Shown one piece after another: positions 53,280 through 58,434 of a stretch of 64,000 bases of DNA. The position numbers were made by a program, and so were the translations under genes. The stretch comes from Anaerolineae bacterium (GTDB lineage Bacteria > Chloroflexota > Anaerolineae > Anaerolineales > UBA4823): contig QEXX01000059.1 of assembly GCA_003130835.1 (NCBI GenBank), positions 219 to 64,218 on the forward strand, given 5' to 3'. Each line of letters starts with the position of its first letter. Positions within the stretch are counted from its first letter, which is position 1. The notes beneath the pieces are model-generated. The model saw only the letters and a list, made by a program, of their open reading frames with translations. It searched no databases and was not told the origin of the DNA.

Positions 53280-53357
53280 GGATAGAGAGATACCTCACGT
53301 TGCAGAGAATGTCGATTACTCTTGGAGAAACCATCACCCTTAAGTCACTTTCCATCT

Positions 53358-53374
53358 GCTATAATCAACGCATG
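53358..53374 (+). promoter_or_regulatory. Extended -10 element (TGcTATAAT) placed 6 nt before ATG 53372; possible leaderless start
   Basis: TGCTATAAT lies at 53357-53365 and the ATG at 53372-53374. No SD sequence lies between them. Confidence 0.3.
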
Positions 53375-54181
53375 GAAAATCTCCCAACAGCTACAACCGT
53401 TGCTTGCTCTCAGTGCGGAGGTGAACTTCATCCAGAGGTTGGGCAAGTCTTTCTCATTTGTCCTTACTGCTCTTCGACCGTATACATCGATAAAAGCCAA
53501 GTCGTCTTCCATTGGTATGTAGCCCCGACACTAGATGAAAAGCAAGCTCGCGCAGCCCTGGCGCGCTGGATGGCAGGTAACCAAACCGTCAAAGATTTGG
53601 ACCGCAAAGCTCAAATTAGCGAAGTCTCTTTCGCTTACTTTCCAATGTGGTTGTTCAAATATCGTAAACCCGATGAAAAAGATGAGCTTCTACTCGTGCC
53701 TGCGGCAGCTACCTCGGTCAGCGAGATAAAAAATCTTATCCTTCCCCCTGGTGACCTGCGTAAGCCTACTGCTGAGATCGACCATGCCGCCCAAGCCCCT
53801 ACTGTGCCGTTGGAAACCGCCTTAGCTTGGTTGGGACAACGTCAAATCACTGCAGAGCAAATTATCGAAAAAGCCCTCGTGCACGTCCCTGTTTATACTT
53901 TCAAATACTTTTTCAATAGCCGTACTTATACTGCCCTTGTGGAAGGCGCCAGTGGGGGCGTTTTTGCCAACCTTTTCCCTGCCAAAGCCGAAGCACCTTT
54001 CCTGCTGATCGGCGGAGCAACAGCCTTGATCTACCTCTGCTTGGCTACCTTCCCTGCCATGGGCGCGCTGCAAAGCGGCGCCAGTGGCTTGGGAATCGGC
54101 CTGCTGATCTGCAGCGGAGCAGGCTTGGTCATTGCACCGATCCTGTTCGTAATTGCCGCTTGGATTGCAGCCAAAATATGA
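53372..54181 (+). CDS. Zinc-ribbon protein with a C-terminal two-helix membrane hairpin (module paralogue 1); function unknown
   Basis: The zinc ribbon is ACSQCGG...ICPYC. It then has VVFHWYVAP, FAYFPMWLFKY and HVPVYTFKYFFNSRTYTALVEGASGGVF, followed by two TM helices. Alternative starts are at 53300 and 53309. Confidence 0.6.
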   Translation: MENLPTATTVACSQCGGELHPEVGQVFLICPYCSSTVYIDKSQVVFHWYVAPTLDEKQARAALARWMAGNQTVKDLDRKAQISEVSFAYFPMWLFKYRKPDEKDELLLVPAAATSVSEIKNLILPPGDLRKPTAEIDHAAQAPTVPLETALAWLGQRQITAEQIIEKALVHVPVYTFKYFFNSRTYTALVEGASGGVFANLFPAKAEAPFLLIGGATALIYLCLATFPAMGALQSGASGLGIGLLICSGAGLVIAPILFVIAAWIAAKI

Positions 54182-55206: not shown

Positions 55207-55745
55207 GTCAATCGGTTACATTGTTTCCATTGAATTGCATCCGCTGTGCGACGCCCATTCCAGCAGAAGTAAATGAAGTGGCGTGGCTATGTTCCATCTG
55301 TGGGGCAAGCATGGCCCTCACTGAAGCTGGCGAAATCGTTCCTTGCGAATTTCATTTTTCAACAGACCTACCTGCTGGCAAAAAAGGTAGACCTTTCTGG
55401 GTGGCAGAGGGGGTCGTTCGTCTGATACGTCAATCGTATAACCGAATCGGCAAGAGCGATCAAGAAGCGATTCAATTCTGGAGTCAACCCCGTCGGTTTT
55501 TCATCCCCGCTTATGATTGCGGACTAGAGGAAATGCTTACCATCGGCACCCGCTGGCTAACCAAGCCACCACCCCTTTTTGAGGGGGCTAAAAGCGATTT
55601 TTTACCTATTACGCAATCAGCCGCTGATGTGCGCGCTTTTGCCGAATTTCTGATTATTGCCATCGAAGCAGCGCGCAAAGACAAGGTCAAGGAAATCCAG
55701 TTTGAACTTGAAATGGGAGTGCCGCAGCTATGGATTCTCCCCTAA
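55203..55745 (+). CDS. Soluble zinc-ribbon protein (module paralogue 3); function unknown
   Basis: An ATGA overlap links it to the upstream gene. It has NCIRCATP...LCSICGAS, IVPCEFHFS and RRFFIPAYDCG, with no TM segment. Confidence 0.6.
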   Translation: MSQSVTLFPLNCIRCATPIPAEVNEVAWLCSICGASMALTEAGEIVPCEFHFSTDLPAGKKGRPFWVAEGVVRLIRQSYNRIGKSDQEAIQFWSQPRRFFIPAYDCGLEEMLTIGTRWLTKPPPLFEGAKSDFLPITQSAADVRAFAEFLIIAIEAARKDKVKEIQFELEMGVPQLWILP

Positions 55746-55938
55746 GCCTATCTTCGATATTGACTTCTTGGGTGCATTGAGGGAGTTGGACGTCTTTATC
55801 TACCTCACTCCAGTTGGAAAAACCTGCACTCCAACGAGAACGAACGACTACGAGGATAAACTTTTCTTGAACAAAAATGCCCCAAAGCCCGGACAAACGA
55901 ACGTTAACTTAGAGATTGCAAATAGAGAGTGAGACAGA

Positions 55939-58434
55939 ATGGAAACCGAAGGAAAATTTTATCTTGGACGGCTCGTTGACCCCCAAACCAACAAAACCAC
56001 CGATCAACCCTTGCTCTACAAATCCGAAGATCTGACCACGCACGCCTTCGTGGTCGGGATGACCGGCTCTGGCAAGACGGGGTTATGCATTTGCCTCTTG
56101 GAGGAAGCGGCCATACAAGGCATACCAGCCTTGATTGTCGATCCCAAAGGCGATATGACCAACGTTCTGTTGCACTTTCCAAATTTTGAGCCAAGCGACT
56201 TCGAGCCCTGGGTCAACGCTGATCTCGCCCGCCGAGAAGGGAAAACGGTGCAACAGGTGGCACAGGAAACTGCCGCAATTTGGAAACAAGGTTTAGCCGA
56301 TTGGGGAATTGAACCTAACCGCGTCCAAGCCCTCTCTGAGGCGGCTCATTTTTCTGTGTATACCCCAGGATCGGATAGCGGCATCCCGGTCAATATCCTC
56401 ACCTCTTTTGAAGCACCTGAGCTTGCGTGGGATGAAAACCGCGAAGCGTTGCGTGAGAAGATCTCCGCTACCGTGACAGCGCTGTTGGGATTAGTCGGTT
56501 TATCGGACGTTGATCCGTTGCGCTCGCGTGAGCACATCCTGCTCTCCAACATCCTTGAACACGCTTGGGTGGCGGGTAAAAACCTCAATTTGAGTGAATT
56601 GATTTTGCAAACTCAATCCCCTCCTTTCACCAAATTGGGTGTTTTCGATGTAGATACTTTCTTCCCTCAAAAAGACCGTTTTGCCCTATCCATGTTGCTC
56701 AACAACATCCTTGCCGCGCCTAGTTTCCAACCTTGGATTGAAGGGCAACCGCTGGATATCCAAAAATTGCTTTATGCTGAGGACGGACGGCCGCGCCATA
56801 GCATATTCTATTTAGCCCACCTGAGCGAAACCGAGCGCATGTTTTTTGTGACCCTGCTTTACACCGCGGTTGAGAGTTGGATGCGCTCTCAACCGGGCAG
56901 CGGCTCCTTAAGGGCAATCGTTTATTGCGACGAAGTCTTTGGCTACTTACCACCGGTCAGCAACCCACCCTCGAAAACTGTGCTGTTGCGCATGCTTAAG
57001 CAAGCCCGCGCCTTCGGCGTCGCCCAAGTGTTGGTTACCCAGAACCCAGTGGATATCGATTACAAAGCCTTATCTAATGCTGGCACTTGGTGTATCGGGA
57101 AATTACAAACCGATCAAGACAAACAACGTCTGTTAGACGGCTTAGAAAGCGCTGTACCAGGCGGGATGAACCGCAATGACTATGATAAACTCATCTCCGG
57201 TTTAGGCAAACGGGTTTTCCTATTGCATAACGTGCACGCAAAAGGCCCCCTGCTCTTCCAGACCCGCTGGGCGATGAATTATCTCGCCGGACCACTCACG
57301 CGTACTCAAATTCCGGCCTTAAGCCGCCTGGCGAAAGCTGCGCAAAGCTTAACGCCTGAGTCCCCCCAAGTTAAGTCAACGGCTCCAGCCTCCTCTAGCC
57401 CACCCATTGGGAAAAAACTTCCACAAACGGAAACTTACCTTGCCACCAAACCTCCTGCCCCAACGGGTGTGGCGGAAGTTTTTCTGCCCGTAAAAGAGAG
57501 TCTTGCCCAAGCCCTTCAAAAATCCGGGCGAACTCGTTCAGCCGATCAGAGTGCCAAGCTACTCTACCGCCCCCGATTGTTCGGACAAGCTCAAATTCGT
57601 TACGTGAACCGAAGGATTGGTTTAGATACTGAAAGCGCAAAAGCGGTTCTAGCAGAAACACCAGATCGACGCGGCTTTGTCCGCTGGGAGGAAAACCTTG
57701 TCCCACCGCTTGACCTGCGCCAGATGGACGGGGCTCCTGTGCCCGATTCTCGGTTTGCACCTTTAGAGATTCCGCTTTCGGATGCCAAGCTAATGGCTGT
57801 TATGCAAAAAGACTTCCTCGATTGGACGTTTCGCAATGCTTCCTTGTCGGTCCAAGTCAACGATGCGCTTCAAGTCGCTTGTGTCCCGCCGATGACCGAA
57901 AGCGAATTTCGGACGCGTTGCGCAGATCTCGCCCGCCAAAAGCGGGACGCAGAAATCAAAAAGGCCACCGAAACCTTCGACAAGAAAATCGAAGCCCTGA
58001 GGCTAAAATTAACCCGAGAAGAGCAAGAACTCGAGGCAGACAAAGAAAAGCTTAACTTGCGGCGCATGGAAGAAGTTGGCACGCATGCTGAAACGTTGTT
58101 CGGATTATTGGGAGGTCGACGCAGTTCGCGTCGGATTTCATCTTCCCTTACCAAGCGCCGTTTAACCAGCCAAGCCAAAGCAGAGGTTGAAGAATCGGAG
58201 AAAACCATCGCGCTGTTGAAGGAACAAATCGCAGATCTTGAAAAAGCCAAAGCAGCCGCTGTCGAAGAGATCCATCAACGTTGGGCGGCCATTGCTGCAC
58301 AGGTGCGCGAAGAAAACATTCAACCCTTGAAAAAAGATGTTTATATTGAGTTTTTTGGCATCGCTTGGCAACCATACTATCTCATACAAGAAGGTGATAC
58401 GTCTATCGAGCTTGTAGCTTGTTCTCTTCAATGA
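55939..58434 (+). CDS. HerA/YjgR(DUF853)-like P-loop ATPase of the FtsK-HerA superfamily with a long C-terminal coiled-coil tail
   Basis: 831 aa. Walker A is [11 protein letters not shown] and Walker B is AIVYCDE. The block [40 protein letters not shown] is present. The C-terminal 150 aa are rich in heptad-like charged repeats. Confidence 0.8.
   Translation: [831 protein letters not shown]

Follow-up and report, generated by a model that had tools for sequence, protein, structure and literature searches.

The pspA-ydjGHI operon of Bacillus subtilis is an envelope-stress operon of the sigma-W regulon. Its product YdjI, together with YdjG and YdjH, exemplifies the SPFH/Band-7 scaffolds that are paired with membrane partners, as are HflK/C and flotillin with NfeD/YuaF. 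YdjG and YdjH are membrane proteins, and the SPFH protein YdjI and PspA depend on both of them for their localization at the membrane (PMC8581546). YdjG has been described as consisting of zinc ribbons, a YpeB-related NTF2-like domain, and a transmembrane (TM) segment (PMC11237479). Here we analyze three consecutive genes for zinc-ribbon proteins, named A, B, and C (the trio), and the gene for a large P-loop ATPase, D, which follows them in a 64,000-nucleotide stretch from an Anaerolineae bacterium (assembly GCA_003130835.1, contig QEXX01000059.1, positions 219 to 64,218 of the forward strand). This whole stretch is called the window, and positions are those of the window unless a locus number (L) is given. 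An initial annotation, made from the sequence alone, had described the four genes as one module with no named counterpart.

All four open reading frames (ORFs) proved to be real. Those of the trio are arranged as follows.

53372-54181, + strand: gene A, 269 aa, assigned to the YdjG family; N-terminal C4 zinc ribbon, alpha/beta cytoplasmic core, C-terminal two-helix membrane hairpin
53405-53470, + strand: zinc ribbon of A, Cys 12, 15, 30, and 33
53987-54178, + strand: predicted membrane hairpin of A, hydrophobic segments at residues 206-233 and 236-269 (Kyte-Doolittle)
54178-55206, + strand: gene B, 342 aa, assigned to the YdjG family; start overlaps the stop of A
54211-54276, + strand: zinc ribbon of B, Cys 12, 15, 30, and 33, invariant in the B family
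54295-54918, + strand: cytoplasmic alpha/beta core of B, residues 40-247; homologous to the core of YdjG
54922-55095, + strand: predicted membrane hairpin of B, helices 249-278 and 284-306 (Kyte-Doolittle), the second at 284-310 in the AlphaFold2 (AF2) model
55203-55745, + strand: gene C, 180 aa, soluble; A/B-type N-terminal zinc ribbon followed by an unrelated alpha/beta domain; start overlaps the stop of B

The genes are chained by ATGA stop/start overlaps at 54178-54181 (A/B) and 55203-55206 (B/C), and each protein carries Cys 12, 15, 30, and 33 as CxxC...CxxC, both as originally described. The same is true of the C-terminal two-helix hairpins of A and B, which were recovered as Kyte-Doolittle segments in both proteins and as helices in the AF2 model of B. 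Unlike A and B, C has no hydrophobic helices. Basic residues flank both ends of the hairpin of B, which indicates a predicted N-in/C-in topology. B is the best-conserved member of the trio, with ~55% identity across Anaerolineales. Its AF2 model (pLDDT 86.5, pTM 0.75) comprises the ribbon, helices, very long strands (residues 82-110, 117-134, and 197-224), and the TM helices. The family alignment showed two invariant motifs in the core, ACDVGEFGV and YYPLW..RY.YRGR..Q..DG.SG..L.GKAPG.

The pspA-ydjGHI operon was considered as a counterpart because an SPFH gene adjoins the trio outside Anaerolineales. The YdjG sequence was recovered from metagenome contigs by an exact match to a published ydjG primer, and it was authenticated by locus L090, which matches all six published ydjG/H/I primers. 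The B-family profile aligned with YdjG in hmmsearch at 57.6 bits as one domain (profile 5-274, YdjG 49-336), corresponding to an E value of ~1e-10 when scaled to 1.8 billion sequences. In hhalign, the B family matched YdjG with a probability of 98.8% and an E value of 8.5e-17 over 260 columns; for the A family the values were 95.1% in hhalign and 33.9 bits in hmmsearch. The aligned features included the second ribbon of YdjG, the '...IPFW' strand, and the motif preceding the membrane segment (LLPVWMVSYDYERAEHIFAMNGQTGKVVGKPP vs YYPLWILRYLYRGRAYQVAIDGHSGQILYGKAPG). As judged from these profile comparisons, A and B are members of the YdjG family.

The likeness extends to the architecture. In YdjG as in A and B, an N-terminal C4 zinc ribbon stands directly before the homologous alpha/beta core, and the motif ...YxPxW...Y.Y......DG.TG.V.G..P is shared just ahead of the membrane segment. 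YdjG is also similar in size to B (341 and 342 aa), and it has a cytoplasmic N terminus and a C-terminal membrane anchor, the topology that is predicted for A and B from the distribution of basic residues. The claim that the trio lacks a named counterpart was thus only partly upheld. Scans of A, B, and C against Pfam, NCBIfam, and PADLOC yielded only sub-threshold matches to generic zinc ribbons, and a literature search (Anaerolineae, zinc ribbon, HerA) found no description of the locus, but the homology of A and B to YdjG places part of the trio in a known, if poorly characterized, family. For the YdjG family itself, neither a Pfam or NCBIfam model nor a solved structure was found.

The B- and C-family profiles retrieved only ribosomal or RpoP-type ribbons from PDB chains. 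In Foldseek, the B model had no match in the PDB (best E value 0.045, TM <=0.16; nothing at E <0.04), the weak entries being beta-pore toxins aligned via their long hairpins, and no NTF2 or PepSY entry was returned. The model of C (pLDDT 92.2, pTM 0.86) matched nothing in the PDB beyond a LysW-like ribbon. In BFVD, the B model matched two giant-virus proteins, A0A5K0UBJ7 of Yasminevirus (493 aa) and A0A3G4ZSZ8 of Edafosvirus (345 aa), both with a probability of 1.00, with E values of 1e-7 and 4.5e-7 and up to 335 aligned columns. Both are annotated as 'DnaJ-like subfamily C member 3'. Going by the predicted structure, a YdjG-like core may occur in Klosneuvirinae or in the hosts of these viruses, perhaps joined to a J domain.

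It had been proposed that A, B, and C are diverged paralogues of a single fold. This was confirmed for A and B. They matched each other in BLASTP with an E value of 3e-12, and their family profiles aligned in hhalign with probabilities of 99.5-99.9% and E values from 1.8e-22 to 2e-32 over ~220 columns, i.e. over the ribbon and the entire cytoplasmic domain. By these alignments, A and B are true paralogues. The proposal did not hold for C. BLASTP gave no significant match between C and A or B, and homology was confined to residues 1-42/49, the zinc-ribbon module (hhalign 95%, E value ~2e-8, with distant members added). In addition, the order of secondary-structure elements differs between the AF2 models of C and B, and RRFFIPAYD, one of the blocks of C that had been named initially, is not what the profile alignment pairs with the 'PFW' strand of A/B; the block matches proposed for C were thus not recovered. 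On this evidence, the kinship of C to A and B is one of the zinc-ribbon module only. The C terminus of C, LWILP, forms the final strand of its AF2 model, and L176, W177, L179, and P180 were invariant in 60 aligned homologues; LWILP may serve as a docking motif.

To describe the distribution of the trio, the B family was scanned in one genome per species, which returned 80 loci, all of them in Anaerolineales. The A-B-C unit was present in ~75 of these species loci. A lay upstream of B wherever the contig allowed, and C followed B in 77/80. Among the loci with a full flank downstream, L053 (Candidatus Aquidulcis sp., DYIZ01000005.1) alone had A and B without a C homologue. An exhaustive HMMER search with the B family returned 3492 clusters (50% identity) at E <=1e-3 and 881 at E <=1e-10, among them members from an Armatimonadota metagenome-assembled genome (MAG) and from the methanogen Methanofollis sp. 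W23. Seven contexts outside Anaerolineales (L083-L089) were sampled. In L084 (Armatimonadota), three genes encode proteins of 250, 361, and 162 aa, of which the first two matched the A and B profiles; the third matched neither the C profile nor Pfam and is called C by position only. L089, beside a tol-pal cluster, has A-B-C genes of 250, 356, and 182 aa. In all sampled bacterial loci outside Anaerolineales, the second gene scored best against the B profile, and the first gene scored best against the A profile in all but L088, where only a fragment of A is present. Because this A-first, B-second preference recurs beyond the order, the duplication that gave rise to A and B is old.

Two natural fusions of B with C were found. 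L087 encodes, besides A, B, and C, a 565-aa B-C fusion (P0417, L087 7001-8698). A second one, which belongs to a separate cluster, is P0384 (604 aa, MBN1139975.1, from an Anaerolineae MAG), with B at residues 1-291 and a full-length C at 409-594. The occurrence of fusions in two separate clusters constitutes Rosetta-stone evidence that B and C act together, and C is an obligate partner of B. A-B-C is, thus, a conserved three-gene unit. A further long protein, P0363 (558 aa, on a 3.9-kb metagenome contig), is a close B orthologue whose ORF also carries, ahead of the B part, a partial protein-kinase domain and a fragment of AAA_16; a chimera created by assembly or gene calling is more probable here than a true fusion.

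In three of the seven contexts outside Anaerolineales (L085, L086, and L088), a gene for a Band_7_1 protein with zinc ribbons adjoins the trio. Like YdjI, this protein has an SPFH domain, a low-complexity stretch, and C-terminal zinc ribbons. The gene order in L085 and L086 is [~175 aa] [Band_7_1 SPFH + zinc ribbons] [A] [B] [C], and in L088 it is [A fragment] [B] [C] [171 aa] [Band_7_1 + zinc ribbons] [DUF2207] [167 aa, A/B-type ribbon]. The homology to YdjG and the presence of YdjI-type SPFH/Band-7 and zinc-ribbon genes beside the trio in these lineages make a receptor role probable. We therefore favor, with a probability of roughly 0.55, the reading that A-B-C is an operon encoding a platform of the YdjG type at the cytoplasmic side of the membrane and that D is a separate ATPase. 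A and B would pair through their membrane hairpins as a heterodimer, exposing their ribbons and alpha/beta cores to the cytoplasm, and C, which in some organisms is fused to B, would dock onto B. The platform would then be a membrane receptor that recruits soluble membrane-maintenance or envelope-stress factors. Its clients would be SPFH/PspA-type proteins where these are encoded alongside, and another, yet unnamed client in Anaerolineales. Both the receptor function and the A/B heterodimer are probable inferences. In SPFH/Band-7 systems in general, small partners integral to the membrane likewise recruit a scaffold that is soluble or peripheral. An adaptor or platform had also been the initial proposal, in which the trio tethered a translocase to the membrane; the conserved, membrane-anchored unit agrees with its first half, and the recruitment of the ATPase is considered below.

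Several observations weigh against the receptor reading. YdjG has two ribbons and a single TM segment, against one ribbon and a two-helix hairpin in both A and B, and the present locus encodes two paralogues plus the soluble C, for which there is no similar partner in B. subtilis. The adjacency of an SPFH gene was seen in no more than the three contexts named above. In the window and within 8 kb of the trio in the 80 Anaerolineales loci, tblastn found no homologue of PspA, YdjH (TPM), or YdjI (Band-7), even though the queries included a YdjI-like protein; a link of the trio to an operon of the pspA-ydjGHI type was consequently not found in this order, and the analogy with SPFH/Band-7 systems is drawn from other lineages. 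Furthermore, the molecular role of YdjG itself is known only from localization and two-hybrid data. Finally, about half of the Anaerolineales species have D on the same strand as the trio and within ~3.3 kb of it.

A more distant analogy is offered by CdpC of Haloferax, a double zinc-ribbon membrane anchor of the FtsZ1 ring (bioRxiv 10.64898/2026.07.16.738847). In this protein, too, zinc ribbons serve as protein-protein interaction modules that tether a cytoplasmic machine to the membrane. It differs from A and B in three respects: an amphipathic helix takes the place of the TM helices, a long disordered linker is present, and the alpha/beta core is lacking. CdpC was rejected as a relative of the trio, since it is non-homologous and differs in architecture, and it is mentioned as an analogy only.

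Until now, YdjG has been regarded as an accessory of the phage-shock/SPFH system in Firmicutes. YdjG-type membrane anchors are already known, if barely characterized; what is new is the widespread A-B-C trio form, in which the YdjG family in many lineages consists of two membrane paralogues and a soluble zinc-ribbon partner. The superfamily of YdjG homologues, with its 3492 clusters, and the C family each merit a formal domain definition. The trio also gives a testable handle on the docking of SPFH/ESCRT-III-type membrane-maintenance machines to bacterial membranes.

Gene D and the spacer that separates it from C have the following features.

55746-55938, + strand: C-D spacer, 193 nt; no terminator-like hairpin on the + strand, no Rfam match, no PLD remnant
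55939-58434, + strand: gene D, 831 aa, soluble; divergent HerA/FtsK-superfamily P-loop ATPase
56056-56082, + strand: Walker A of D, GMTGSGKTG, residues 40-48, invariant across the D family
56920-56934, + strand: Walker B of D, VYCDE, residues 328-332, invariant across the D family
57454-58431, + strand: conserved C-terminal region of D, residues ~506-831 (family alignment)

The assignment of D to the HerA/DUF853 branch was corroborated by these motifs, by a HerA-like block at about residues 366-384, after Walker B, and by matches in Pfam (DUF87/HerA, 29.8 bits with a cut-off of 23.2, E value 8e-7; HerA_C/DUF853, 23.5 bits with a cut-off of 22, E value 2.6e-5; TrwB_AAD_bind, 23.3 bits with a cut-off of 20.5) and among PDB chains (weak matches to a HerA central domain-containing protein, 8wiv, which was the best at 5e-7, and to DotL and YjgR). 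D differs from the HerA/YjgR branch in that these matches are weak and partial (E values from 1e-4 to 1e-7) and in its unique conserved C-terminal region of ~330 aa with coiled-coil-like helices. The NCBIfam HerA equivalogs scored 17-21 bits against a cut-off of 800. D lacks the N-terminal barrel of HerA, for which no space is left ahead of a Walker A motif that begins at residue 40; YjgR likewise carries its P-loop close to the N terminus. D has no membrane segment by Kyte-Doolittle analysis and is ~60% identical across Anaerolineales. The long, charged, heptad-like tail that had been noted initially was found to be conserved across the D family over ~330-360 aa. It is preceded by a variable Pro/Ser-rich linker, has its charged heptad-like helices at ~690-790, and gave only weak coiled-coil matches in Pfam. 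A literature search on YjgR/DUF853 returned no useful information on function.

The linkage of D to the trio was counted in the 49 species loci with at least 6 kb of flank downstream of C. D was present within ~3.3 kb downstream of C in 23 of them and absent in 26, including those of Anaerolinea thermolimosa and A. thermophila, and no HerA-type gene occurred in any of the seven contexts outside the order. The modal gene order is A-B-C-PLD-D, with distances from C to D clustering at ~1.2 kb. PLD denotes a gene of ~1.1 kb for a secreted NucT-like protein; the gene immediately follows C, in the same orientation, in 38/60 loci (e.g. L056 9583-10656; further examples of the gene are L081 7848-8960 and L092 6605-7660). 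It joins the trio on one side and D on the other, and it is the steadiest neighbour of D. A GSDH gene is often found between PLD and D, and in some loci either GSDH or a sigma/anti-sigma pair is inserted between C and D. Direct abutment of C and D was seen only in the window and its closest relatives (L001, L002, L034, and L048). Neither a PLD gene nor a pseudogene or remnant of one was detected in the C-D gap or elsewhere in the window, and the adjacency of C and D here is thus explained by the missing PLD gene in this lineage. Four loci with D homologues were examined: L082 and L093 contain the trio, and L081 and L092 have none within 9 kb. The latter two nevertheless keep the block of genes for an LPG-synthase TM protein, an FAD oxidoreductase, a Thump-like methyltransferase, PLD, and D, from which it follows that the trio and D are present or absent independently of each other within a conserved block of unrelated genes.

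The four-gene module of the initial annotation accordingly gave way to a unit of three genes. D is an independently conserved neighbour and not a core member of the trio, and their adjacency reflects regional synteny within one order. In this way, a real conserved module is set apart from a neighbour that resembles a member in this genome only. A lineage-specific functional link between D and the trio may still exist. In such a case, A-B-C would be an Anaerolineales-restricted tether that docks the D hexamer, perhaps via the C-terminal coiled-coil domain of D and maybe with PLD included, to form a membrane-bound DNA or protein translocase. The common strand, the 193-nt gap without a terminator-like hairpin, the tight spacing of the modal cluster, and the conserved D tail with no assigned function are in line with this idea, as is the frequency of D near the trio (23/49) compared with that of the Thump-like methyltransferase upstream (17/58). 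A NucT-like PLD and the presence of ComEC a few genes downstream of D in L092 and L093 would also fit; the PLD-D-ComEC neighbourhood could hint at DNA handling, although it is a lead only, and the 3' end of the window showed no ComEC-like ORF. On the other hand, D is absent within at least 6 kb in more than half of the species counted, inserts separate it from C in some loci, D and PLD persist with their flanking genes where the trio is missing, HerA-type genes do not accompany the trio outside the order, and the entire region consists of housekeeping genes that are unrelated to one another and conserved as a block. Taken together, these points render the translocase tether rather unlikely.

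The position of PLD directly after C also raises the question of a partnership between the trio and this protein, in which the trio would sense or transduce envelope signals or would export, anchor, or regulate PLD, with phospholipid head groups or extracellular DNA as the target. PLD has a signal peptide and two HKD domains, and its best named matches are nuclease NucT, DISARM DrmC, and cardiolipin synthase, the first two below their cut-offs. PLD (HKD) hydrolases have been reported from some PspA/Band-7 operons (PMC11237479), which is compatible with such a partnership. It is weakened by the window and its closest relatives, where the PLD gene is missing and the trio is kept unchanged, by the trio contexts outside Anaerolineales, none of which has PLD, and by the loci in which PLD stays beside D and the trio is absent. 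We regard the partnership as distinctly unlikely.

A more far-reaching reading combines these elements. A-B-C would be an ancient, hitherto undescribed three-component platform, as would be in keeping with its occurrence in several bacterial phyla, the paralogue arrays in a methanogen, the fold match in giant viruses, and a core fold absent from the PDB. In Anaerolineales, its SPFH/PspA-type client would have been swapped for D and the NucT-like PLD, resulting in a new type of machine, a translocase or phosphodiesterase tethered to the membrane, that would handle DNA or remodel membranes. This scenario is speculative, and we hold it to be improbable.

Defence was another role suggested at the outset, and the four genes could then be an anti-phage or mobile-element system around a HerA ATPase comparable with Sir2-HerA, DUF4297-HerA, or MADS. 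D gave weak partial PADLOC matches (mad8 at 1e-12, HerA models at 2e-11 and weaker), its best PDB match is the HerA central domain-containing protein, and an array of A/B-type paralogues in Methanofollis lies near a ParE toxin and an N6 methyltransferase. By contrast, A, B, and C had no PADLOC match, and no NurA, Sir2, DUF4297, or other known partner gene was found in the neighbourhood of D, nor does an effector nuclease, a Sir2 gene, or a methylase partner adjoin the genes in the window. All four genes show 55-60% identity across the whole order and occupy one syntenic site among housekeeping genes, near dnaA in L082. Among 72,556 plasmids, D had two weak matches and B had one marginal match, and a mobile-element origin of B and D was rejected for this near-absence. 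The housekeeping neighbours, the order-wide conservation, and the plasmid result speak equally against conjugation, and a defence system is extremely improbable.

The Methanofollis array (L083 6681-11430, Methanofollis sp. W23, JAGGMN010000001.1) comprises four A/B-type paralogues in tandem (403, 406, 366, and 285 aa), two with and two without a zinc ribbon, and it contains neither a C nor a HerA gene. It adjoins a ParE/antitoxin pair, an N6 methyltransferase, and a HATPase_c gene. In the loci with a Band_7_1 gene, a conserved helical protein of ~175 aa is encoded directly upstream of that gene (L085 5568-6095, L086 3208-3729, and L088 8720-9235). It has the N-terminal motif ..VPGYRxYxxxExLRxxDK.. 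and no Pfam match, and it was dismissed as a relative of PspA or of the D tail, as it has no similarity to either. Downstream of Band_7_1 in L088 (10367-12685), a DUF2207 membrane protein is followed by a protein of 167 aa whose C-terminal zinc ribbon matches the A/B ribbon profile (E value ~1e-7). A LiaI-LiaF-like TM protein is encoded nearby on the opposite strand.

The 5' side of the trio in the window is marked by one further feature.

53234-53267, + strand: terminator-like hairpin, 14-bp stem followed by a T-rich tail (hairpin scan)

From its sequence and position, this hairpin is taken as the end of an upstream surface-protein/small-ORF unit and as the predicted 5' limit of the A-B-C transcription unit. 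An Rfam scan of 52500-59500 gave no match. The upstream unit consists of a SpaA/SdrD-B-like surface protein with a C-terminal membrane anchor (51611-53074) and, after it, a 39-codon ORF (53094-53213, + strand; MYEREQKVYITPAIVLELELETRAGSSLGEVFEELFSEE), which ends just before the hairpin and has no family match. The pair is kept in L002, where the peptide is 53% identical. Farther upstream (49452-51140, + strand) lies the gene for a predicted secreted protein of 562 aa without a Pfam match, which has a long Pro/Thr/Ser-rich C-terminal region. Conservation of this gene at a site upstream of the trio was limited to L002 and L034, the closest relatives.

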